Shown: positions 8,049 to 38,787, counted from the first letter of the stretch. The stretch is DNA of 64,000 nt from an uncultured virus (IMG/VR IMGVR_UViG_3300031182_000006) (IMGVR_UViG_3300031182_000006), one strand, 5' to 3'. A program made the numbers and translations. Notes: a model not told the origin generated them from the sequence alone.

Positions 8049-8508
8049 TTATAGTATAACATTCAATATTCTCAACGACTTCTTCTTAACGTCTTCGTTA
8101 ATTTTTTTAGTATGATCGCACCAAGCAAGATTTGTATATGTAAACTCACCCATATATTGGTTATCGTCTATTATGACAAAATTCTTTACAATGTTTTTAT
8201 TCTGATCCAACCATTGGCGTATTTCAATAGGTCGAATAGTTTTATCCATTTCTTGAACTAAAATAGGCGTACAGCCTATAAATTTATCAACAAGTCCATA
8301 TTTTCCCAATTCTTCTTTAATTGCCTCTATTGCCCATTCAAAATGGCGCCAATTGGACGAAATAACTATCCTAGCATCAGCTTCATGTACTATTTCTTTC
8401 AAATATTTCATAGCATGTTGTTCGAATGTAATATATCCTCTCTTGTTGGGCGATAGCATCATTTATCACCCCGTCTATATCCAAAAATATTATATTCAAT
8501 CTATCCAT
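8049..8508 (-). pseudogene. frameshifted HAD-family phosphatase (Swiss Army Knife RNA repair-like HAD)
   Basis: N-terminus MDRLNIIFLDIDGVIN from 8508 is out of frame with the IVISSNWR...FVIIDD body in ORF 8049..8462. Confidence 0.75.
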
Positions 8509-8684
8509 TTTCTCCACCGACTCTCTATGTCGACTCCATAAAGTAACCTTACAATAAAGTTGAGAATAAAATTTATTAGTAGAAATTTTAATATCAAAAT
8601 CTTATAACCCATGTGGGAGAATTAATAACTACGGTCTTCTTTAACAATCTATTAATATTAATCTGAGAAAGGTGGCTTAAAAGG

Positions 8685-16221: not shown

Positions 16222-18375
16222 ATGAGCAGTAAAAACATTCAGATTCGTCACAAGAATGGTAGTGAATGGGATAATTTATACCCAAAAACAAAAGCGGAAT
16301 TAGTAGAAGGTCTTGATGAGCAACTTGCCGGAAAGGTTGATAAAGAAGAAGGTAAAGGTCTTTCTACTGAAGATTATACTACAGAAGAAAAGAATAAACT
16401 TGCGGGCATTGAGGAAGGAGCCAACAAATACGTTCATCCAACTAGTGCTGGTAATAAACATATTCCTTCTGGCGGTGCGCCTAACCAGGTACTTAAATAT
16501 GGCGGTTCGTCAGGAACCGCAACATGGGGTGCTCTGACATCTGCAGATATTCCTACATTGGCTCTTAGTAAGATTTCCGATGCAGGTACAGCAGCTTCCA
16601 GAGATATCGGTACTTCTGCTGGTAATGTGCCTGTATTGGATAGCAATGGTAAACTTGATGTTAATGTCCTTCCTGCAATTGCTATTTCGGATACTTTCGT
16701 TGTCGGAAGCGAAGGAGAAATGCTGGGTCTTACTGCGGAAGTTGGTGATATCGCGGTACGATCGGATATCAACAAAACATTCATTTTGAGAGCAGAACCT
16801 GCATCCGTAGTTGGCAACTGGCAAGAACTTTTGACTCCGACTTCCCCTGTACAATCTGTTGCAGGTAAAACCGGTGCAGTTACACTGGTTAAAGGTGACG
16901 TGGGACTCGGAAACGTCCAAAACTATGGAATAGCAACACAGGAAGAAGCAGAAGCCGGAACGTCCGATACCGCGTACATGACGCCGCTTAAAACAGCGCA
17001 GGCGATTGCTGCACTTGCACCCGCGCCGGATGCTTCGGAAGTTTCGCTTAGTTCACCGAATTTCACTTCTACCAACGTCCGGGATGGAATGGATGAACTT
17101 TTTCAATCTGTCAGTGATGGGAAAAATCAGATCGCTTCCGCCATCACTGACATGGGACAGTCTGCTTCAGGAGGCGACACGTTTGCGCAGTTGTCAAGCA
17201 AAATTCGGGACATCTCCAAGGACGCGAACGCGGCTGTTGGGGATGTTTTGACCGGTAAGACGTTTTATCAGGGCGGAGTAAAGCGCACCGGCACGATGCC
17301 CAATAACGGATCGGTTTCCCAAACGCTGACATCACAAGGCGAAGAATACACGATCCCGGAGGGATACCACGACGGCACCGGCACGGTCACGACCGACATC
17401 GTGAATCTGTCCGCAGGAAATATCCGAGCCGGTGCGACGGTAGGCGGCGTTGATGGTACGTTCACTAGCGACGCGACAGCCACGGCTGGTCAAATCTTGT
17501 CTGGCCGGACGGCGTATGTTAACGGCTCGAAGGTAACCGGCAGCATGATCAACAATGGAGCCGTCAGTCAAACCTTGACCACGCAGGGGGCGTCGTACAC
17601 AATCCCGGCAGGTTATCACAATGGCAGCGGCACAGTCACGGCCAATATCACCAACTTGACGGCGGCCAATATCAAGGCTGGTACGACGGTCGGCGGCGTA
17701 TCTGGAACATTCACAAGCGACGCAACCGCAACAGCCGCACAAATCTTGTCTGGCCGGACGGCGTATGTTAACGGCTCGAAGGTAACCGGCACGATGCCAG
17801 TCAAAACAAATGATTATGGCGCACCGCGTACAGGCCAAACTGGGCGTCTGTATGTGACACCGGAAGCAGGATACCATGACGGGACTGTAAGGGTCTATAC
17901 GGACGACGCTAATTTTAATGCTGCCAATATCAAGTCTGGGGTTACGCTGTTCGGAATAACCGGTACGTATGCGCCGATTTCCGTAGGTAGTACAACCCTG
18001 ACATTTAACCGATCCGGCTCCGGTAACAATGTTACGTCGATTATCTATTATGCGAATTACACGCCGCCCAAGACAAACTTTTTGGGGTCGTTCCAAATAC
18101 CCGTTACGTTCACAATCGGGAACATTGAATATAAAGGAGACCCGTTTAACAGCATCACGATCGGATATCCGACAAACCTAATCTTCGGCTATGGTTTGTA
18201 CATTGTCGACCCGACCGTTAATGCAGAAATACAAATCAGCGCCATTTATAATAGTAGCACTGGCCGTATTCAACTACAGATTGGTAACCCGTCCACAGCA
18301 AGTCCTAAAGCGTTGTTTACCAATATCAGCACCAATAGCTTTACAGCGGGTTTACGGTATGTTTCATGGGAGTGA
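16222..18375 (+). CDS. chimeric tail fibre protein (native N-terminus plus captured C-terminus)
   Basis: LYPKT, GANKYVHP, VQSVAGKTGAV modules; ~83-aa TIPxGYHxG/DATATA repeats; abrupt GC rise after ~16900. Confidence 0.85.
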   Translation: MSSKNIQIRHKNGSEWDNLYPKTKAELVEGLDEQLAGKVDKEEGKGLSTEDYTTEEKNKLAGIEEGANKYVHPTSAGNKHIPSGGAPNQVLKYGGSSGTATWGALTSADIPTLALSKISDAGTAASRDIGTSAGNVPVLDSNGKLDVNVLPAIAISDTFVVGSEGEMLGLTAEVGDIAVRSDINKTFILRAEPASVVGNWQELLTPTSPVQSVAGKTGAVTLVKGDVGLGNVQNYGIATQEEAEAGTSDTAYMTPLKTAQAIAALAPAPDASEVSLSSPNFTSTNVRDGMDELFQSVSDGKNQIASAITDMGQSASGGDTFAQLSSKIRDISKDANAAVGDVLTGKTFYQGGVKRTGTMPNNGSVSQTLTSQGEEYTIPEGYHDGTGTVTTDIVNLSAGNIRAGATVGGVDGTFTSDATATAGQILSGRTAYVNGSKVTGSMINNGAVSQTLTTQGASYTIPAGYHNGSGTVTANITNLTAANIKAGTTVGGVSGTFTSDATATAAQILSGRTAYVNGSKVTGTMPVKTNDYGAPRTGQTGRLYVTPEAGYHDGTVRVYTDDANFNAANIKSGVTLFGITGTYAPISVGSTTLTFNRSGSGNNVTSIIYYANYTPPKTNFLGSFQIPVTFTIGNIEYKGDPFNSITIGYPTNLIFGYGLYIVDPTVNAEIQISAIYNSSTGRIQLQIGNPSTASPKALFTNISTNSFTAGLRYVSWE
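16827..16901 (+). repeat. 75-bp direct repeat, copy 1
   Basis: identical to 18859-18933. Confidence 0.95.
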
Positions 18376-18425
18376 AATCGTGATGACGAGAGAGGACTCA
18401 TTATACAGATCGCATCGGCGGCCAA

Positions 18426-18578
18426 GCCGAGCAATATAAACAAATCACCGGATTTGATTATGAAGCGTAAGGCTCCGCCGAATAGGCGGGGCCTCATAAT
18501 CTGCACAGTGTGGTACAATTAGACGCTATGACGGCAGAAGAATATGAGCAGATTACGAGCGAGCCGTACACACCCTAA
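18426..18578 (+). pseudogene. two XkdX-like gene remnants
   Basis: AEQYKQITGFDYEA* (18426-18470) and MTAEEYEQITSEPYTP* (18528-18578) resemble the XkdX C-terminal ITxEEYxxITG motif. Confidence 0.65.
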
Positions 18579-18600
18579 TTAGGCGCAGAGACGTGTAATT

Positions 18601-18627
18601 AGACCCTGCTTAATGCGGGGTCTTTTT
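18601..18627 (+). terminator. intrinsic terminator
   Basis: agaccctgc-ttaat-gcggggtct followed by T-run. Confidence 0.8.
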
Positions 18628-18639
18628 GTTGACTTCGTA

Positions 18640-18668
18640 GTGACAAAAGGGAAATTTTATACGATAAT
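18640..18668 (+). promoter_or_regulatory. sigmaA-like promoter inside the captured segment
   Basis: GTGACA-17 bp-GATAAT. Confidence 0.5.
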
Positions 18669-18775
18669 AGTGTTAAAGTACTCGTAAAGTACGATTACGT
18701 TACCGTCGCTGGAAGGGGTGGAAAAGTTCCGATGGACTTTACGAGCCTTGGAGAGTACGGCGTAGGAATCGCGTC

Positions 18776-19453
18776 ATGACTTCTCCCGATGGTATAAACT
18801 GGACGATTCGTTCAACTCCGGCGGATAACAACTGGTATTCCGTCACTTATGGCAACGGACTTTTGACTCCGACTTCCCCTGTACAATCTGTTGCAGGTAA
18901 AACCGGTGCAGTTACACTGGTTAAAGGTGACGTTGGTCTTGATAATGTTGAAAACTACGGTATCGCTTCTCAAGCTGATGCTGAAGCCGGAACAGCAAAT
19001 AATAAATACATGACCCCTGCGAGAGTTAAGCAAGCAATTGATGCGTTTGCTGCTCCTAAAGAGCATCAACATGTCGCTTCGGATATCACTCAAGATTCGA
19101 CTCACCGTTTTGTAACTGATGCAGAAAAAGCTGCATGGAATGCAAAAGCAGACAAAACGGTAGCTACTACCAGCAATAACGGCTTGATGTCGTCCGCTGA
19201 TAAAGCAAAACTCGATGGAATCGAAGCTGGCGCCAATAAGTACGTACATCCGACTGGCGATGGTAATCTCCATGTGCCTCCAACTGGAACCAGCAACAAC
19301 AATAAAGTGCTGAAAGCAGGGGCTACTGCTGGAAGCCTTTCCTGGGGTTATGTTAATTGGAATGAAGTAGATGGTAAACCTGTTAACCTTGCATCTATTG
19401 TGGTTTCTGGTACTGAACCTACAAATGCTGATTTCTGGTATCAGGAAATTTAA
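18776..19453 (+). pseudogene. displaced native C-terminal half of the tail fibre gene
   Basis: foreign MTSPDGINWT...YGNGL fragment joined to repeat copy 2 and native-GC sequence; in frame with 16222 if the insert is removed. Confidence 0.7.
18859..18933 (+). repeat. 75-bp direct repeat, copy 2
   Basis: identical to 16827-16901. Confidence 0.95.
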
Positions 19454-19670
19454 TTTAATCTATTTGTGAATAGTCTATAAATTAAATGAAAAAACACTTT
19501 TTGGGGTCGGATGGATTAAAAAGTCCATCCGACCGCCAAGTTTCTATTATAATATAGACAGACAACTATATTTACCAAAATTTAAATGGAAAACAAAAAT
19601 GTAATAAATATTTATTCTATCTGTATTTATAAGGAGAATTAACAAAATATAAAGAACGGAGGTATTTTAA

Positions 19671-20420
19671 ATGGCAAAAAATATACTACAGAAACAATAC
19701 GTACCTGGTGTCGGATGGGTTGAGCTTCATCCAATTACTAAAGCGTCCAATATTATAGATTCAAACGGTCTTAGTGTACAAGAGCATATTGATGCTAAAA
19801 ATCCACATGGAACTGATAAAAGTGATGTAGGTCTTGGTAATGTTGAAAACTATGGTATTGCATCTAAAACTGAAGCCGAAGCCGGAACTGCAAGTAACAA
19901 GTACATGACACCACAAAGAACTTCCCAGGCAATTGCAGCTTTGTCGCCTGTGAAGTCGGTTGCTGGTAAGACGGGTGCAGTGACTCTCGTAAAGGGAGAT
20001 GTAGGTCTCGGAAACGTTGAGAACTATGGCATTGCATCTAAAACTGAAGCCGAAGAGGGAACTGCAAGTAATAAGTATATGACTCCTGAGAGAACATCTC
20101 AGGCGATTGCTGTTCAAGCCCAGGCTATTGCAGATGAAGTTGAAAACAGATCAAAAGAGTATGCTGATCTGTTGATGGAACAGAAGATTATTGAAATTCC
20201 TTCTAGGTCAGGTAAAGACGAGAATGGAATTTTCACGATCGTTGAATATTACAGACCAAATAATACATTAGCACGAAAAACCGAACTTAGCGGTGGGTCG
20301 TCTCCGAATTATACAACAAGAACCATAACCTTCTATGCAGAAGACGGTATGACTGTGACAAAAACAGTCACAAGAACCTTAATTTATGATGAGGATGGAG
20401 ATTTCCTGCGAGAAGAATAA
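19671..20420 (+). CDS. tail fibre-related protein
   Basis: two copies of VGLGNVENYGIASKTEAExGTASNKYMTP; AACA-N6-TA at 19592-19603. Confidence 0.75.
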   Translation: MAKNILQKQYVPGVGWVELHPITKASNIIDSNGLSVQEHIDAKNPHGTDKSDVGLGNVENYGIASKTEAEAGTASNKYMTPQRTSQAIAALSPVKSVAGKTGAVTLVKGDVGLGNVENYGIASKTEAEEGTASNKYMTPERTSQAIAVQAQAIADEVENRSKEYADLLMEQKIIEIPSRSGKDENGIFTIVEYYRPNNTLARKTELSGGSSPNYTTRTITFYAEDGMTVTKTVTRTLIYDEDGDFLREE

Positions 20421-20702: not shown

Positions 20703-22841
20703 GTGAAAGAAGTGAACGATTTAATTTATCATGGGTTAATTGGGAAAAAAATTGATTCTGTAGAGGTGCTAAATAATGAATTTATTGCTACAGATGACAA
20801 TGTGGAGCTGGCTAGTTCATATAATTTACCTAATACTGGACGCTCTGTCTCATTCTCTCCCGATGGTCAATATATAGCTGTAGGACATAGTGGTTCTCCT
20901 TATTTTACTCTATTAAAAAGAAATGGAGATAATGTAAAACTAGCTAGTAATTATATATTACCTAGTACTGGCTATGGTGTATCATTCTCTCCCGATGGTC
21001 AATATATAGCTGTAGCACATACTGCTTCTCCTAATTTTACTTTACTAAAAAGAAATGGAGATAATGTAGAATTAGCTAGTACTTATACATTACCTGGCAA
21101 TGGAAACTCTGTATCATTCTCTCCTGATGGTCAATATATAGCTGTAGGATATGATCTTTCTCCTCGTTTTACTTTACTAAAAAGAAATGGAGATAATGTA
21201 GAATTAGCTAGTAATTATATATTACCTGGTATTGGACGTTCTGTCTCATTCTCTCCCGATGGTCAATATATAGCTGTAGGGCATTATGCTTCTCCTTATT
21301 TTACTCTATTAAAAAGAAATGGAGATACTGTAGAACTAGCTAGTACTTATACATTACCTAGTGATGGCTTAGGTGTATCATTCTCTCCTGATGGTCAATA
21401 TATAGCTGTAGCACATAATGGTTCTCCTTATTTTACTTTACTAAAAAGAAATGGAGATAATGTAGAATTAGCTAGTACTTATACACTATCTAACTATGGC
21501 TTTGGTGTATCATTCTCTCCCGATGGTCAATATATAGCTGTAGGATATTATGGTTCTCCTTATTTTACTTTACTAAAAAGAAATGGAGATAATGTAGAAT
21601 TAGCTAGTACTTATACATTACCTGGCAATGGCACGGGTGTATCATTCTCTCCCGATGGTCAATATATAGCTGTAGGACATTTTAGTTCTCCTTATTTTAC
21701 TCTATTAAAAAGAAATGGAGTACAAGAAGCCATCGAAATTAAAACTAAAGTAAATGTTATTAAAGAAATTGATGGTCAGTTAAAAGAGGTTAAAAGTAAT
21801 AAGATATTTAGAGATGTAAAAGAATTAGTTTATAAGAATAATTATGAAAAAGTACTACTAGCTGATACTTATACATTACCCAATATCGCCACGGGTGTAT
21901 CATTTTCTCCCGATGGTCAATATATAGCTGTAGGACATTATGATTCTCCTTATTTTACTTTACTAAAAAGAAATGGAGATAATGTAGAATTAGCTAGTAA
22001 TTATACATTAACTGGTAATGCTGGAGGTGTATCATTCTCTCCTGATGGTAAATATATAGCTGTAGCATATTATGGTTCTCCTTATTTTACTCTATTAAAA
22101 AGAAATGGAGATAATGTAGAACTAGCTAGTACTTATACATTACCTAGTTATGGCCATGGTGTATTATTCTCTCCCGATGGTCAATATATAGCTGTAGCAC
22201 ATTGGGGTTCTCCTCATTTTACTTTACTAAAAAGAAATGGAGATAATGTAGAACTAGCTAGTAATTATACATTACCTGATATTGGCTTGAGAGTATCATT
22301 CTCTCCCGATGGTCAATATATAGCTGTAGGACATTATGGTTCTCCTTATTTTACTCTATTAAAAAGAAATGGAGATACTGTAGAACTAGCTAGTACTTAT
22401 ACATTACCTGGTGCTACCGAAAATGTATCATTCTCTCCCGATGGTCAATATATAGCTGTAGGATATTATGGTTCTCCTTATTTTACTCTATTAAAAAGAA
22501 ATGGGGATACTGTAGAATTAGCTAGTAATTATACATTACCTAATATTGGATACTCTGCCCCATTCTCTCCCGATGGTCAATATATAGCTGTAGCACATAA
22601 TGGTTCTCCTTATTTTACTTTACTAAAAAGAAATGGAGATAATGTAGAATTAGCTAGTACTTATACATTACCTGGTGATGGCTATAGTGTATCATTCTCT
22701 CCTGATGGTCAATATATAGCTGTAGGACATAATGGTTCTCCTTATTTTACTTTACTAAAAGCAGGAGGAACTTTTTCAAAAACCCCTCCAATCTTTATTG
22801 AATATAGAGGTAAAAGATATAAGATGCGTACAATTAATTGA
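20703..22841 (+). CDS. tandem 7+7-blade beta-propeller protein A, putative receptor-binding protein
   Basis: 14 copies of a 44-aa WD40-like repeat (SFSPDGQYIAV), split 7+7 by a ~40-aa linker. Confidence 0.85.
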   Translation: MKEVNDLIYHGLIGKKIDSVEVLNNEFIATDDNVELASSYNLPNTGRSVSFSPDGQYIAVGHSGSPYFTLLKRNGDNVKLASNYILPSTGYGVSFSPDGQYIAVAHTASPNFTLLKRNGDNVELASTYTLPGNGNSVSFSPDGQYIAVGYDLSPRFTLLKRNGDNVELASNYILPGIGRSVSFSPDGQYIAVGHYASPYFTLLKRNGDTVELASTYTLPSDGLGVSFSPDGQYIAVAHNGSPYFTLLKRNGDNVELASTYTLSNYGFGVSFSPDGQYIAVGYYGSPYFTLLKRNGDNVELASTYTLPGNGTGVSFSPDGQYIAVGHFSSPYFTLLKRNGVQEAIEIKTKVNVIKEIDGQLKEVKSNKIFRDVKELVYKNNYEKVLLADTYTLPNIATGVSFSPDGQYIAVGHYDSPYFTLLKRNGDNVELASNYTLTGNAGGVSFSPDGKYIAVAYYGSPYFTLLKRNGDNVELASTYTLPSYGHGVLFSPDGQYIAVAHWGSPHFTLLKRNGDNVELASNYTLPDIGLRVSFSPDGQYIAVGHYGSPYFTLLKRNGDTVELASTYTLPGATENVSFSPDGQYIAVGYYGSPYFTLLKRNGDTVELASNYTLPNIGYSAPFSPDGQYIAVAHNGSPYFTLLKRNGDNVELASTYTLPGDGYSVSFSPDGQYIAVGHNGSPYFTLLKAGGTFSKTPPIFIEYRGKRYKMRTIN

Positions 22842-25203
22842 TATGGGGATTTAAAATAAAAGATTTATATTTACATGAAATAATAAAAAGACATGCTTCA
22901 GCAAAAATACTAAAAAAAAATAAATTCAATTATACTGATGATGGACTAAATCTTATAAGATCATATATTTCATCATATATTGTATATGATGTGTCATTTC
23001 CCCCTTTGGTCAATTTATTCACGGTTCGTGACACGCTTTTCACCTTATTAAAGGCTAGTGATATATTTAAATCAAACCCCTTCCCAACTATTGTCGAATG
23101 TAGAGGGAGAAAATATAGAGTTAGGGAAAAATCTTAATAAAGGAGGTAAGTAATTTGGAAGAGCTTTATTTTCACGAATTGCTACGACAAGGCGTTTCAG
23201 TAAATATTCTAAATAATAAATTTATTGCTACAGATGACAATGTGGAGCCGGCTAGTTCATATAAATTGCCTAACTATGGCTATAGTGTTTCATTCTCTCC
23301 CGATGGTCAATATATAGCTGTAGGACATGTTGGTTCTCCTCGTTTTACTTTACTAAAAAGAAATGGAGATAATGTAGAATTAGCTAGTACTTATACATTA
23401 TCCGATACTGGACGCTCTATCTCATTCTCTCCCGATGGTCAATATATAGCTATAGGACATAGCGGTTCTCCTGGTTTTACTTTACTAAAAAGAAATGGAG
23501 ATAATGTAGAACTAGCTACTAAATATACATTACCTGATGTTGGATATGGTACGGCATTCTCTCCCGATGGTCAATATATAGCTGTGGGACATAATGGTTC
23601 TCCTTATTTTACTCTATTAAAAAGAAATGGAGATAATGTAGAACTAGCTAGTACTTATACATTATCCGCTACTGGACGTTCTGTCTCATTCTCTCCCGAT
23701 GGTCAATATATAGCTGTAGCACATGCTGGTTCTCCTCGTTTTACTTTACTAAAAAGAAATGGAGATAATGTAGAACTAGCTAGTACTTATACATTACCTA
23801 GTGATAGCTTTGATGCATCATTCTCTCCTGATGGTCAATATATAGCTGTAGCACATTATGTTTCTCCTCATTTTACTCTATTAAAAAGAAATGGAGATAA
23901 TGTAGAACTAGCTAGTACTTATACATTACCTAGTACTGGCTTGGGTGTATCATTCTCTCCCGATGGTCGATATATAGCTGTAGCACATTATGGTTCTCCT
24001 TATTTTACTTTACTAAAAAGAAATGGAGATAATGTAGAACTAGCTAGTACTTATACATTACCTAGTGTCGCCATGGATGTATCATTCTCTCCCGATGGTC
24101 AATATATAGCTGTAGGATATATTAATTCTCCTCCTTATTTTACTCTATTAAAAAGAAATGGAGTACAAGAAGCCATCGAAATTAAAACTAAAGTAAATGT
24201 TATTAAAGAAATTGATGGTCAGTTAGAAGAGGTTAAAGGTAATAAGATATTTAGAGATGTAAAAGAATTAGTTTATAAGAATAATTATGAAAAAGTATTA
24301 CTAGCTAGTACTTATACATTACCTTTTACTAGCTTGGATGTATCATTCTCTCCCGATGGTCAATATATAGCTGTAGAACATAATAGTTCTCCTTATTTTA
24401 CTTTACTAAAAAGAAATGGAGATAATGTAGAACTAGCTAGTACTTATACATTACCTGGTGGTGCCGAAGGTATATCATTCTCTCCCGATGGCAAATATAT
24501 AGCTGTAGCACATTATGGTTCTCCTTATTTTACTTTACTAAAAAGAAATGGAGATAATGTAGAATTAGCTAGTACTTATACATTATCTGACGGTGGCTAT
24601 GGTGTATCATTCTCTCCCGATGGTCAATATATAGCTGTAGGACATCATGGTTCTCCTTATTTTACTCTATTAAAAAGAAATGGAGATAATGTAGAACTAG
24701 CTAGTAATTATACATTACCTAGTAATGGCTTGGGTGTATCATTTTCTCCCGATGGTCAATATATAGCTGTAGGATATAATGGTTTTCCTTATTTTACTTT
24801 ACTAAAAAGAAATGGAGATAATGTAGAATTAGCTAGTACTTATACATTACCTGGTACTAGCTATGGTGTATCATTCTCTCCCGATGGTCAATATATAGCA
24901 GTGGGACATTTTGGTTCTCCTTATTTTACTCTATTAAAAAGAAATGGAGATAATGTAGAATTAGCTAGTACTTATACATTACCTGGTAATGCCGAAGATG
25001 TATCATTCTCTCCCGATGGTCAATATATAGCTGTAGGACATTGGGGTTCTCCTTGTTTTACTCTATTAAAAAGAAATGGAGATAATGTAGAACTAGCTAG
25101 TAATTATACATTACCTGGTACTAGCTATGGTGTATCATTCTCTCCCGATGGTCAATATATAGCAGTGGGACATAGCGATTCTCCTTATTTTACCCTATTA
25201 AAA
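20796..25203 (+). repeat. 28 coding tandem repeats of about 132 bp in four arrays of seven
   Basis: near-invariant tcattctctcccgatggtcaatatatagctgtag and ctaaaaagaaatggagataatgtagaa frameworks. Confidence 0.95.
22838..23137 (+). CDS. collapsed paralog of the propeller genes
   Basis: shares LYxHE..NKF..TDD start, FTLLKA, and ExRGxxY end, with one degenerate blade. Confidence 0.65.
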   Translation: MIWGFKIKDLYLHEIIKRHASAKILKKNKFNYTDDGLNLIRSYISSYIVYDVSFPPLVNLFTVRDTLFTLLKASDIFKSNPFPTIVECRGRKYRVREKS

Positions 25204-25278
25204 GCAGGAGGAACTTTTTCATCACAAAATCCTATTATTATAAAATATAGAGATGTCGAATACGAACTTGTGTGGTAA
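23155..25278 (+). CDS. tandem 7+7-blade beta-propeller protein B, putative receptor-binding protein
   Basis: same architecture and near-identical linker as 20703..22841; AAGGAGG RBS. Confidence 0.85.
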   Translation: MEELYFHELLRQGVSVNILNNKFIATDDNVEPASSYKLPNYGYSVSFSPDGQYIAVGHVGSPRFTLLKRNGDNVELASTYTLSDTGRSISFSPDGQYIAIGHSGSPGFTLLKRNGDNVELATKYTLPDVGYGTAFSPDGQYIAVGHNGSPYFTLLKRNGDNVELASTYTLSATGRSVSFSPDGQYIAVAHAGSPRFTLLKRNGDNVELASTYTLPSDSFDASFSPDGQYIAVAHYVSPHFTLLKRNGDNVELASTYTLPSTGLGVSFSPDGRYIAVAHYGSPYFTLLKRNGDNVELASTYTLPSVAMDVSFSPDGQYIAVGYINSPPYFTLLKRNGVQEAIEIKTKVNVIKEIDGQLEEVKGNKIFRDVKELVYKNNYEKVLLASTYTLPFTSLDVSFSPDGQYIAVEHNSSPYFTLLKRNGDNVELASTYTLPGGAEGISFSPDGKYIAVAHYGSPYFTLLKRNGDNVELASTYTLSDGGYGVSFSPDGQYIAVGHHGSPYFTLLKRNGDNVELASNYTLPSNGLGVSFSPDGQYIAVGYNGFPYFTLLKRNGDNVELASTYTLPGTSYGVSFSPDGQYIAVGHFGSPYFTLLKRNGDNVELASTYTLPGNAEDVSFSPDGQYIAVGHWGSPCFTLLKRNGDNVELASNYTLPGTSYGVSFSPDGQYIAVGHSDSPYFTLLKAGGTFSSQNPIIIKYRDVEYELVW

Positions 25279-25355
25279 AAAAATACTACATCTACATTTT
25301 AATAAATAAATTATAAAAAAACATCTATTAAAATCTAAATGGGAGGTATACATTT

Positions 25356-25655
25356 ATGCCAATCGTAAGTGGTGAACAAATCGCCCCTGATAAAATCCGG
25401 GTGAGGTCGATAACTTATACAACGAACACTCCACCGAACGACAATTGGTATTCGGTTCCATCAGTACCCGAATGGCCAGAGGTTGAAATCGGGAAGCGAC
25501 CTGAGATGTATTTTAATCCACAGACAAAGGAGTTCAGCTTTGAGATTGTTGATGCTCCTTTGACTCCGGAACAAGAAAAAGATCTCGAAATTCAACGTCT
25601 GAACCAGCTTCTTGACGATGCTACAAGCTTATTATTAGAAAACGAGGTGTTGTAA
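25356..25655 (+). CDS. putative tail fibre assembly chaperone
   Basis: small protein after fibre genes, MYFNPQTKEF motif, C-terminal coiled coil. Confidence 0.6.
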   Translation: MPIVSGEQIAPDKIRVRSITYTTNTPPNDNWYSVPSVPEWPEVEIGKRPEMYFNPQTKEFSFEIVDAPLTPEQEKDLEIQRLNQLLDDATSLLLENEVL

Positions 25656-25864: not shown

Positions 25865-27994
25865 TTATTTCCTCTTGCTCTTCAGAGACATAATCGGCAT
25901 ACTGCGTAATTTGAAACTCTTGACAGCCTGCTCCATAAAATACTCTTGGACATTGAATGGAACAGGACTTTTCAAAAGTTCGTACTGATTGTCTTTATTG
26001 AGAATGTAGGTGTTGAATGTGTCGCGGAAATACATTTTCAAAATAGACAAGAGTTTATTTCTGGAATTTTCGTCCGTAATCGGAACCAGAAGTTCAACCC
26101 GTCTGTCCAAATTCCGCGTCAACATATCAGCACTTGAAATGAAAATATCTGACTTTCCATTATTGTAGAAGAAGTAAATTCTACTATGCTCTAGAAATCT
26201 ACCAACAACACTCTTGATGCTGATGTTCGAATTGATTTTCTTCATCGAGCATATACCTCTACAGATAATGGATATCTTGACACCCTGCTCAGAGGCCTCA
26301 TACAGCTTCTTGATAATACCCAGATCAGAAAGGGAGTTAAGCTTCAACGTAATGAAAGCTTGTCTACCCTTTTGAGCATTCTCGATCTCTCGATCGATAA
26401 GCTGATACAATCTCAATCTCAGATTGTACGGAGCATAGAAAATTTTGCTCACTTCGTCTCTGGGATCGGAGAAACCTGACAAGACATTAAATATCGTCAA
26501 CAGGTCATCCGCTATTTTGCTGCTGGATGTGAAGTAGGAAATATCGGTATAGATTGACGCAGTCTTGTCGTTGTAATTTCCTGTACCGATATGGCAATAC
26601 GTTTTGAGATTTTTCTTTCCTTTCCTCACAACCAATATAAATTTACAATGTGTTTTCAACTCCTCAATACCATAGATCAATTTACAGCCGGATACTTTTA
26701 GTTTTTCTATCAACGACATATTTCTATTCTCATCAAACCTTGCTTTAATTTCGAGAAGAACACTTACCTGCTTTCCTCTTTCAGCAGCCCTACACAACGC
26801 CTCGACAATCGGGGACTCCGCAGAAGATACTCTATACAGAGTCAATTTGATTGCCAAGACATCATTATCCTCGGCCGCATGTTCGAGGAATTTGATAACC
26901 GGTGTGAACGACTCGTAAGGGTGATGAAGAATGAGATCGCCGTTGTCGATAGCAGTAAACATATCGTGCTCGCCGATCAGATCTTCTGGATACTGAGGGT
27001 TGAACGGGTCGTACTCGTAAGCCGCATTTCTTATCGGCTTACTTAAGAGAAACGACATGTCTACGATGTTTTCACATTTAAACACTTGCCTCTTGTCAAT
27101 GTCGAAGATTTTGGTCAGAAGTTTGAGGGTTTCCTTAGGAACATCACTGTCGATATCCATGAAGATGGGTTTACTAAACTCCCGTTTAATGAGAGTTTCC
27201 CTCATTCGGTCGACAATATAAATATCCCGTCTTCCCTCAATTTCAATATCCGCCTCACGAATGATTCTCATACATCCCCTATAGATGATACTCTTGTTGA
27301 TAAATACCTTGTGGAGAAAATTAAAGATAATATCCTCCAACAAGATATATCGTTCTTCATCGCTCTCGTCAGTCTCAATCTTGTACAAACGATCAAGACC
27401 ATGGAGTGGGATGATGGACATTACATTCAGATTTGGATTTTTCTTGTCCCCTAGAGAAGCTATTATGCATAGCTGCTTAGATTTAATAAGGGGAAATTCT
27501 TTGGTTGAGTCAAAGGTGATCGGGGTCAGCAACGGATAAATGTTTCTTTCGAAAAGCTTTCTTACATAATCAACTTCCTTTTCACTGAGATGCTTGAACT
27601 TACAAATCGTGAAATTGTTTTTACGCAGTTTCTTTCTCAGTTTTTCAAAGCTTTCTTGCTGGATTTCTTTGAAAGAAATAATTTCCCGGAGCAAGAGTTC
27701 ATATTCTTGCTCCGGGAGAAGACCAGCAATATCCGTTTCTGTATACCCCAATCTGAGTTTATTAAGGATAGATGAAAATCTAACCATAATAAACTCATCC
27801 AGGTTCGATTCCGTGATACCCAAGAACTTAAGTCTCTCCAAAAGAGGAACCTCAGTTCTCATAGTTTGATGGAGAACCCTTTTATTGAACTCCATCCAAC
27901 TCAATTCACGATTCATATAGAATCCTGGATTATTAAACTTTGACCTAATCCTATCTCTTTCAACGTCGAAGAGATCACTAAGATTGTTAGTCAT
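25865..27994 (-). CDS. ppk1: polyphosphate kinase 1
   Basis: NRELSW, SNLDEF, HHPYESF, TLYR, KARFDE, KTHCK, GTGNYN, GRFLEHSR, RNLDRRVE; full length 709 aa. Confidence 0.95.
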   Translation of the reverse strand: MTNNLSDLFDVERDRIRSKFNNPGFYMNRELSWMEFNKRVLHQTMRTEVPLLERLKFLGITESNLDEFIMVRFSSILNKLRLGYTETDIAGLLPEQEYELLLREIISFKEIQQESFEKLRKKLRKNNFTICKFKHLSEKEVDYVRKLFERNIYPLLTPITFDSTKEFPLIKSKQLCIIASLGDKKNPNLNVMSIIPLHGLDRLYKIETDESDEERYILLEDIIFNFLHKVFINKSIIYRGCMRIIREADIEIEGRRDIYIVDRMRETLIKREFSKPIFMDIDSDVPKETLKLLTKIFDIDKRQVFKCENIVDMSFLLSKPIRNAAYEYDPFNPQYPEDLIGEHDMFTAIDNGDLILHHPYESFTPVIKFLEHAAEDNDVLAIKLTLYRVSSAESPIVEALCRAAERGKQVSVLLEIKARFDENRNMSLIEKLKVSGCKLIYGIEELKTHCKFILVVRKGKKNLKTYCHIGTGNYNDKTASIYTDISYFTSSSKIADDLLTIFNVLSGFSDPRDEVSKIFYAPYNLRLRLYQLIDREIENAQKGRQAFITLKLNSLSDLGIIKKLYEASEQGVKISIICRGICSMKKINSNISIKSVVGRFLEHSRIYFFYNNGKSDIFISSADMLTRNLDRRVELLVPITDENSRNKLLSILKMYFRDTFNTYILNKDNQYELLKSPVPFNVQEYFMEQAVKSFKLRSMPIMSLKSKRK

Positions 27995-38322: not shown

Positions 38323-38787
38323 CTAACTTCTCGCTCGTTTATTCAAAATGCGCCTTATTTTCCATGTGTATTTTTCTGTCAATCCCGTTTTTCTATCACA
38401 CTTTACAAGATTTTCTTTAACCAAGCCCAAATCGAAGTCGTCATCGTCGATTACAACATAGCCCGTTATAAGTACCATTTTAGTAATTGTTTCGAGGAAA
38501 GCCTTGATTTCAAGATCCCGTCGACCCAACTCATCAGTTTTTCCAATTATTCTATCAGCAATAACGTTGTTGTAGTGTCTGAATATGTTTCTAAGCTCCT
38601 CCACGGTACGACCTATTCTCCAAGAAGAACTCACTATAATCCACGCATTATTTTCAACAAGAATATTTCTTAGAGTTCTAATTGCTCTTGGAGACATTTC
38701 AAGACCAAAATGTACTTCTGGATCGGATGGGTATGGATGATCTTCACAATTCATTACTCCGTCTATGTCCAAAAATATAAGTTTCAT
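38323..38787 (-). CDS. HAD-family phosphatase (Swiss Army Knife RNA repair-like HAD)
   Basis: FLDIDGV, VSSSWR, VVIDD. Confidence 0.85.
   Translation of the reverse strand: MKLIFLDIDGVMNCEDHPYPSDPEVHFGLEMSPRAIRTLRNILVENNAWIIVSSSWRIGRTVEELRNIFRHYNNVIADRIIGKTDELGRRDLEIKAFLETITKMVLITGYVVIDDDDFDLGLVKENLVKCDRKTGLTEKYTWKIRRILNKRARS

Follow-up and report, generated by a model that had tools for sequence, protein, structure and literature searches.

The 64,000-nucleotide (nt) stretch of DNA analysed here, from an uncultured virus (IMG/VR IMGVR_UViG_3300031182_000006) and hereafter called the window, contains two genes, A and B, each composed of 14 copies of a 132-nt repeat that encodes one blade of a beta-propeller. 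We consider ordinary recombination between blades, combined with selection for new loops, to be probably the best explanation of the variation observed in these genes. The two genes encode stand-alone tandem seven-bladed WD40/PD40 propellers in the tail-fibre region of a jumbo phage. According to this explanation, the 28 blades of A and B and those of allelic and paralogous genes in related phages would constitute a common pool under concerted evolution. In-register blades would undergo homologous recombination, through gene conversion and unequal crossing-over, whether they lie in the same gene, in paralogues or in co-infecting phages, which would keep the 132-nt scaffold near-uniform and move patches of about 40-70 nt, each bearing one loop. 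We infer this molecular route, and a timescale that would be evolutionary and not per-infection. New loops would come from ordinary point mutation and be retained through diversifying selection, which acts on some eight codons in each blade, and the products probably act as variable binding surfaces for host attachment, a role that the gene context makes plausible. The evidence thus points to recombination as a shuffler and homogeniser of blades, and not as the origin of loop novelty.

Tandem Repeats Finder detected a period of 132 nt in both genes, with 14.6 copies at 20846-22760 in gene A and 14.5 copies at 23277-25193 in gene B (80% matches in each case). Each protein has 14 SPDG anchors, spaced by exactly 44 residues except for one step of 86/87 residues over the central linker, and therefore each gene is organised as seven blades, a linker and seven further blades:

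20703..22841, + strand: gene A, 712 amino acids (aa), with an N-terminus of about 34 aa, seven blades, a 45-aa linker, seven blades and a C-terminal tail of about 20 aa (from the list of open reading frames, ORFs)
20805..21728, + strand: blades A1-A7, 7 x 132 nt, propeller 1 of A (codon alignment)
21720..21854, + strand: linker of gene A (VQEAIEIK...NNYEKV), a low-confidence beta hairpin in the structural model (predicted local distance difference test score, pLDDT, <50 at residues 340-380)
21855..22778, + strand: blades A8-A14, propeller 2 of A (codon alignment)
23155..25278, + strand: gene B, 707 aa, with the architecture of gene A (ORF list, blade coordinates, Pfam, PHROG)
23245..24171, + strand: blades B1-B7, propeller 1 of B; B7 has one additional codon in loop 2
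24163..24297, + strand: linker of gene B (comparison with the A linker)
24298..25221, + strand: blades B8-B14, propeller 2 of B (codon alignment)

The linkers of A and B differ at 2 of 135 nt, although the termini of the two genes are far more diverged (70 of 102 nt shared by the N-termini and 49 of 81 nt by the C-termini), which agrees with what the original prediction, made from the sequence of the window, had said of them. Promoter-like matches in the arrays merely recur with the blade period.

A and B belong to the WD40/PD40-type beta-propeller superfamily. In Pfam, gene A matched PD40 with 141.3 bits (cut-off 20.9) and WD40 with 112 bits (cut-off 27), and gene B the same families with 133.2 and 101.5 bits, respectively; gene A also matched phrog_19311 in PHROG (expect value, E, 5.2e-69). 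An AlphaFold2 model of A has two propellers with four strands per 44 residues and a mean pLDDT of 82.9, with 369 of 712 residues at pLDDT >=90 and blades mostly at 86-96, the low-confidence regions being limited to the N-terminus (residues 1-31), the linker (340-380) and the C-terminus (689-712). The best Foldseek matches of this model are tandem seven-bladed propellers, and the nearest solved structure is 2ymu (phmmer E 3.1e-85; fold match E 1.5e-34, 33% identity). Only propeller families were found by Pfam in A and B, with no NACHT/NB-ARC or effector domain, and the N-terminus comprises just about 34 residues. In a protein database search generic WD40 proteins dominate; among the matches listed (120 of 928), identity does not exceed 67%, and fusions to beta-helix, fn3, LamG and F5/8-C domains occur according to precomputed Pfam lists. 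In a phage GenBank collection there was no megablast match, and tblastn retrieved seven records, each with less than 60% identity.

The 28 blades of A and B were aligned by codon, and two extended sets, of 56 and 124 blades (the latter from 12 gene copies), were used for comparison. In the 28-blade alignment, 60 of 132 columns are variable, 43 of them informative, and the variation is focused on codons 9-16 and 27-33, with scaffold differences between blades of 4.8 in 87 nt. Eight codons per blade (10-14, 29, 30 and 33) are hypervariable, and these are under positive diversifying selection: non-synonymous and synonymous divergences (dN and dS) are 0.72 and 0.33 (dN/dS 2.19) at these codons and 0.018 and 0.16 (dN/dS 0.11) at 30 scaffold codons, and in the 56-blade set dN/dS is 2.11 at hypervariable and 0.21 at scaffold codons, all of these being crude estimates from pairwise Nei-Gojobori counts and not from a site model. 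When mapped with DSSP on the model of A, the hypervariable codons fall within the D-A and B-C loops or next to them, and the A-B and C-D turns are formed by the invariant SPDG and NGD motifs; judging from the four-strand meander topology, the variable residues should share one face of the propeller, opposite to the SPDG/NGD turns.

The composition of the hypervariable codons bears on the origin of new loops. Third-position T is mostly kept at codons 10, 11, 14, 29, 30 and 33, and not at 12 and 13, and codon 10 occurs as AGT, GGT, AAT and GAT, that is, in all four combinations of two adjacent bases, which therefore do not come from recombination and reflect recurrent point mutation filtered by selection. 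The predominance of NNT codons, the four combinations at codon 10 and the dN/dS above 2 also favour another account, in which both arrays were recently amplified from one or few blades and then diverged by point mutation and positive selection, with shared motifs as products of convergence or leftovers of the duplication order. The nearest structure, 2ymu, adds to this, since its family is read as recently amplified (PMC9218822). We nevertheless regard such an amplification as unlikely, for reasons that lie in the synonymous markers, in the loop flanks and in the related genomes.

Besides the hypervariable codons, the blades carry several dimorphisms: Leu2 CTA/TTA, Thr/Asn5, Pro19 CCC/CCT, Gly/Ala27, His/Tyr28 and the coupled Leu36-Leu37 pair, which is TTA-CTA or CTA-TTA. 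We also noticed that the leucine codons 2, 36 and 37 (20805-25221) are dimorphic for CTA/TTA near 50% in most alleles examined. All four gametes are present in 49 of 105 pairs of scaffold markers. Four synonymous markers form 11 haplotypes in the 34 scorable of 56 blades, where the maximum without recombination or recurrent mutation is five, and the same number of haplotypes is reached by the 16 scorable blades of the window. The Leu36-Leu37 haplotypes of the 56 blades are distributed as 29 CTA-TTA, 25 TTA-CTA, 2 TTA-TTA and no CTA-CTA (r2 = 0.87), and with such almost perfect coupling the two codons are therefore not a pair of independent hot spots; this pair is in equilibrium with all markers at least 20 nt away, and with Leu2, Gly12 GGC/GGA, Pro19 and the loops. 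Leu36 is CTA in 6/14, 8/14, 9/13, 7/14, 6/14 and 7/13 blades, and in 7/9 blades of the partial allele 26A. Synonymous dimorphisms thus stand at intermediate frequency in most alleles and are mutually incompatible, a state that a star-like burst from one or few blades cannot yield.

The gene and the position of a blade hardly predict its relatives. Distances between blades at scaffold sites are the same within and between genes (0.062-0.084 among A, B and three genes of the related genome G002), no differentiation was observed when blades were grouped by genome or by gene, and positional orthology is weak (p = 0.22 for A and B at non-hypervariable codons; p = 0.035 for A and the G002 allele). 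Blades are exchanged within and between paralogues, with no clustering by gene or position.

The loops themselves retain traces of this exchange. Loop 1 has 98 distinct cores among 124 blades, and in the same set identical 15-nt loop-1 cassettes form 37 pairs, when 3.35 are expected under codon independence (p = 0.0003). After dropping two blades of the same allele segment, the remaining 35 pairs differ less than other pairs in the flanks of the loop (0.37 vs 1.10 at codons 6-9, p = 0.004; 0.63 vs 1.11 at codons 15-19, p = 0.0105), with no lowered differences at codons 20-26 or 34-38. Restricted to synonymous changes, the flanks (codons 6-9 and 15-19) still differ less (0.047 vs 0.099, p = 0.0045), as does codon 2 (p = 0.035), and no reduction is seen at codons 20-26 (p = 0.95) or 31-38 (p = 0.76). 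Since the synonymous flanks are linked and the remainder of the blade is not, the shared loop-1 cassettes are identical by descent over about 40-55 nt, which counts against a recent amplification followed by convergence. None of the 25 pairs of blades identical over codons 26-38, nor of the 12 identical over codons 6-19, has one difference or fewer in the other segment.

Individual mosaic tracts, which also speak against amplification followed by mutation alone, were identified in both genes of the window:

24840..24909, + strand: 70-nt tract of B12 (codons 5-28) identical to B14, a candidate conversion tract (Fisher p = 0.0026, loop with marker)
25104..25173, + strand: partner of the B12 tract in B14
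21390..21464, + strand: 75-nt tract of A5 (codons 20-44) identical to A13 (blade-pair comparison)
22572..22646, + strand: partner of the A5 tract in A13

The tract shared by B12 and B14 deviates from the consensus at four bases, among them the rare synonymous pair GCA-GTG, and has differences on both flanks. A5 and A13 differ by 14 nt in their first 19 codons, and this blade pair, identical over the following 75 nt, is therefore a mosaic. In the related genome, blades a10-a12 have a common tract with a unique synonymous TCC31, the rare Ile26, Arg38 and Lys1, and unrelated loops 1, and blades a1 and a2 are identical apart from the Leu36/37 pair. Allele 26A is itself a mosaic: over 396 nt, spanning blades 5-7 and the greater part of the linker, it equals the G002 allele, and from the first loop of blade 8 it diverges. 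In allele 25B, Lys22 is present in 7 of 13 blades (permutation p = 0.002).

The original prediction had listed seven short motifs recurring in new combinations across blades and across both genes, and all seven are present as described in the 28-blade codon alignment. Their sharing is above chance in part only. By one-sided Fisher tests on the 28 blades, four motifs are nominally above chance, namely GGA-NNN-TCT in A1, A3, A4, A13, B2 and B4 (GGA12 with TCT14, p = 1.9e-5), GGT-ACT-AGC-TAT-GGT with GCA-GTG in B12 and B14 (p = 0.0026), AAC-TAT-GGC in A6 and B1 (AAC-TAT, p = 0.008) and GGC-AAT in A3 and A7 (p = 0.026), and three are within chance: AGT-GAT in A5 and B5 (p = 0.15), ACG-GGT in A7 and A8 (p = 0.24) and CAT-TGG-GGT in A10 and B13 (TGG29 context, p = 0.28). 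If the p-values were corrected for the examples having been picked post hoc, only the GGA12-TCT14 association and the B12/B14 motif would remain above chance. The wider proposal, that short-patch recombination between blades is the diversifier, holds for the shuffling of patches, as seen in the marker and flank tests, and fails for the source of new loops.

Several results weigh against recombination between blades as the explanation. The pairwise homoplasy index (PHI), which had been put forward beforehand as a check on the blade alignment, was not significant (p = 0.89, 0.88, 0.58 and 0.13 with windows of 6, 12, 24 and 48 nt; 43 informative sites), a result that also favours recent amplification; PHI is weak on these blades because variable sites are clustered and multi-state, and the same clustering would bias a GENECONV-type permutation of site order towards false positives. 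As many as 62% of informative site pairs are incompatible, irrespective of distance. Linkage disequilibrium (LD) has a mean r2 of 0.12 at up to 3 nt and 0.11 at 4-9 nt, and then falls to about 0.05, the sampling baseline; with all common variants the decay consists of a short-range excess only (Spearman p = 0.15), and the drop beyond about 9 nt could also be explained by saturation through recurrent mutation. Loop-1 and loop-2 distances are uncorrelated in Mantel tests (r = 0.08, p = 0.22; r = 0.002, p = 0.48). Taken alone, the PHI, LD and Mantel results fit free shuffling and mutational saturation equally. The sharing of loop-2 haplotypes is at chance level in the 124 blades (114 vs 103 expected, p = 0.28), again in line with amplification and point mutation. 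Moreover, segment boundaries and marker sets were chosen after inspection of the alignment, p-values are uncorrected for multiple tests, the 124-blade set keeps blades with a one-codon insertion without re-registering them, two blades escaped the anchor pattern, and the dN/dS ratios are of the crude kind described above. For the proposed attachment role, the termini of A and B have no anchor domain recognisable by Pfam or in the AlphaFold2 model.

The same caution extends to the assemblies, as all sequences are short-read metagenome assemblies, and Podospora WD40 arrays of such type are reported not to have been reconstructable from Illumina assemblies (PMC12222747). Blade order and mosaics could then be, in part, short-read chimeras across near-identical scaffolds in multi-strain samples, given that identical stretches of up to 75 nt exist among the repeats. 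In pre-assembled contigs of four public runs, the arrays are covered in short pieces and are fragmented throughout, and many array joints in these contigs are probably repeat artefacts; in one of these runs, X2, 44 of 46 contigs are at >=99% identity, and X2 may be the source sample. We find an origin of the blade order and mosaics as chimeras very improbable. A viral contig from another data set (L004/G001) matches the window at 8,628 of 8,628 nt, a span that takes in the whole of gene A, and a third assembly, from a third data set (L006/G002), contains gene B with a single mismatch. The reading frame and the count of seven plus seven blades are kept in all arrays, and the shuffling of markers is visible within the 28 blades of these reproduced genes.

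Recombination between blades also finds support in the related phages, where part of the locus has moved as a module:

22756..25426, + strand: 2.67-kb stretch identical to G002 except for 1 nt (23523), in a gapless alignment with its left breakpoint in blade A14

This stretch runs from the last part of gene A through a 99-codon ORF and the whole of gene B into the beginning of the following ORF. Gene A is about 10% diverged from G002, with all 14 blades differing, and the flanks of the module are unrelated; elsewhere, 40 kb of the window has only three short stretches in common with G002, at 66-71% identity. With a near-identical module in otherwise distant phages, a recent transfer between jumbo phages has therefore taken place, with its left junction inside A14. 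In G002 the same scaffold is present in two further genes, G2c, behind a long repeated-domain array, and G2d, inside a 1,685-aa protein. In G003, a distant relative at 57-58% identity, a homologous gene is organised as seven blades, linker and seven blades, with a C-terminus that is also homologous and with heterogeneous blades. The uniform scaffold of A and B therefore results from homogenisation; the architecture itself did not arise recently and predates the split from G003, another point against recent amplification.

Blade number, which the original prediction described as held at seven, is indeed seven in all four arrays of the window, and is not constant beyond them. One related contig has a B-type gene of four blades (L024:5915-6616, 234 aa) and another a B-type gene of one blade (L026:1739-2044, 102 aa), both with intact N- and C-termini. 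These could be natural contractions by unequal recombination or collapsed assemblies, and in the latter case they would count for an assembly artefact. The window has an apparent one-blade relic of its own between A and B:

22838..23137, + strand: 99-codon ORF in which a single degenerate blade is framed by a diverged N-terminus and a C-terminus, both of A/B type (translation)

This ORF overlaps the stop of gene A by 4 nt and has an identical copy in G002. It matches gene B weakly (E 1.3e-4, 40% identity), has no match in Pfam or PHROG, and, from its sequence, looks like a collapsed one-blade paralogue of A/B type. Elsewhere, a 210-kb metagenome contig encodes a 1,974-aa protein with 17 anchors, a more diverged (56%) version of the propeller that adjoins the A and B genes of that contig (L027:1629-7550).

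We also looked for a dedicated diversifier. In diversity-generating retroelements (DGRs) of phages and bacteria, variation is aimed at ligand-binding residues, mostly at codon positions 1 and 2, and in Neisseria pilE/pilS and Borrelia vlsE short non-reciprocal patches are copied into an expression site from silent donors, with high-frequency switching. Programmed high-frequency diversification of A and B during infection, by a DGR or by cassette conversion similar to that of pilin or vlsE, would agree with the targeted variation at the first and second positions of NNT codons, which is superficially retroelement-like, with the new combinations of variable regions in constant frameworks, and with the many potential donor blades in the same genome. 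However, no reverse transcriptase (RVT_1) was matched in G001, G002 or G003, of which G002 and G003 are rated 100% complete, although control genomes were matched, and none was found among the 66 window ORFs scanned. The variation is not adenine-specific: variable sites alternate between A/G, C/T and other bases, in both directions, and codon 10 has A/G at both positions. As to a DGR template, the variable sites do not fit the adenine pattern, and no search aimed at a template repeat was made. No silent promoterless cassette array is present in the window, where two or more anchors occur only in the two full genes; unlike in pilE or vlsE, there are no silent donors, every blade being expressed, and no high-frequency switching was seen. 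Identical genes in independent assemblies, and in very different genome backgrounds, together with the lack of a reverse transcriptase in the genomes and ORFs listed, give no sign of a fast or dedicated mechanism, and make programmed diversification extremely improbable.

Recombination between blades could also be read in a broader way, which we put forward as rather unlikely, with the 132-nt scaffold serving as portable homology and distant jumbo phages sharing one population-wide library of loops that tracks host surfaces. Every blade of paralogues and co-infecting relatives would then donate loop cassettes of 40-70 nt, and the 2.67-kb module would be an exchange caught in the act. Such a library would be a counterpart, devoid of reverse transcriptase, of retroelement-driven or lamprey-type receptor diversification.

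The closest known case for A and B is that of the WD40 repeats in the HNWD genes (het-d, het-e and nwd) of Podospora anserina. According to Paoletti, Saupe and Clave 2007 (PMC1805685) and PMC12222747, near-identical repeats undergo concerted evolution within and between these paralogues, few codons per repeat diversify on the interaction face, repeat number varies, and mutation, reshuffling and selection act together. A and B resemble the HNWD proteins in their near-identical repeats, concerted evolution within and between paralogues, few selected codons and double propeller. Repeat-number polymorphism is a further likeness, as B alleles have 14, 4 and 1 blades, with assembly collapse possible for the short ones. 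In contrast with HNWD, the phage propellers stand alone in the tail-fibre region, without a NACHT/NB-ARC or effector domain, they have eight hypervariable codons instead of four, no repeat-induced point mutation (RIP) operates here, and exchange also occurs between phage genomes. The process is thus known from Podospora, and the setting differs, namely double propellers of phage tail-fibre regions with exchange between genomes.

Pereira and Lupas 2022 proposed a model of amplification from a single blade, in which repetitive arrays are recent amplifications, with a data set that includes viral proteins (PMC9218822). The cyanobacterial 'WRAP' propeller 2ymu ('Structure of a highly repetitive propeller structure') is similar to A and B in having 14 near-identical blades in two seven-bladed propellers, but it is reported to lack synonymous substitutions and was interpreted as amplified very recently (PMC9218822). 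The phage scaffold, in contrast, has a dS of 0.16 and shared, shuffled synonymous polymorphisms, and its architecture is older than its homogeneity.

Propellers are also found in other phage tails. The receptor-binding platform of Staphylococcus phage phi11 is five-bladed and is not known to be internally repetitive. Its beta-propeller acts as host-binding head and is encoded in the tail module (PMC4901313). A and B are likewise propeller genes of a tail region, with a putative binding function. A literature search of titles and abstract openings retrieved no account of phage tail modules with hypervariable repeat propellers. Should the binding role be correct, phages would evolve host-recognition surfaces in the way of fungal WD40 immune sensors, and jumbo phages would have a retroelement-free route to receptor diversity. 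More than 100 natural loop variants on one scaffold could be tested for binding specificity. In practice, such genes are easily mis-assembled, and their alleles are completely different between otherwise related contigs.

The window is part of a large (jumbo) phage, and across the 5.7 kb compared it does not differ from a viral contig of 212 kb. Pfam and PHROG identify among its proteins a DnaB-like helicase, a Dda-like helicase, an SbcD-like nuclease, an SLH-domain amidase endolysin, an RNA-polymerase beta-prime-like fragment, an RNase H and a polyphosphate kinase, and scans of the window with Rfam and for tRNAs found nothing. On the + strand, the order around the propeller genes is three tail-fibre-like genes, gene A, the 99-codon ORF, gene B and a second 99-codon ORF:

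16222..20420, + strand: three tail-fibre-like genes directly upstream of A, on the same strand (tail, tail-fibre and virion-structural PHROG matches)
25356..25655, + strand: 99-aa ORF downstream of B, with weak PHROG matches only

Tail-fibre genes lie upstream of the propeller genes also in G002 and G003. The putative binding role of A and B draws on this position, on the fusion contexts of the scaffold in G2c and G2d and on the domain fusions of database relatives. The ORF at 25356-25655 travels with the module, following B in L006, L023, L024, L026 and L032.

The tail-fibre region has a G+C content of 0.49 at 16-18 kb, compared with about 0.34 elsewhere. ORFs 16222 and 18776 have a common near-identical peptide block (LLTPTSPVQSVAGKTGAVTLVKGDVGL...NYGIA), of which a shorter version (SPVKSVAGKTGAVTLVKGDVGLGNVENYGIA) is present in ORF 19671, and ORF 16222-18375 contains internal repeats of about 85 residues each. 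The HAD domain known from 'Swiss Army Knife' RNA repair proteins is matched by two separate ORFs on the - strand (8049-8462 and 38323-38787). Directly downstream of the propeller module, on the - strand, lies a gene for polyphosphate kinase 1 (25865-27994); the protein is full-length, with the four PPK domains all present, and the gene may be an auxiliary metabolic gene of the phage.

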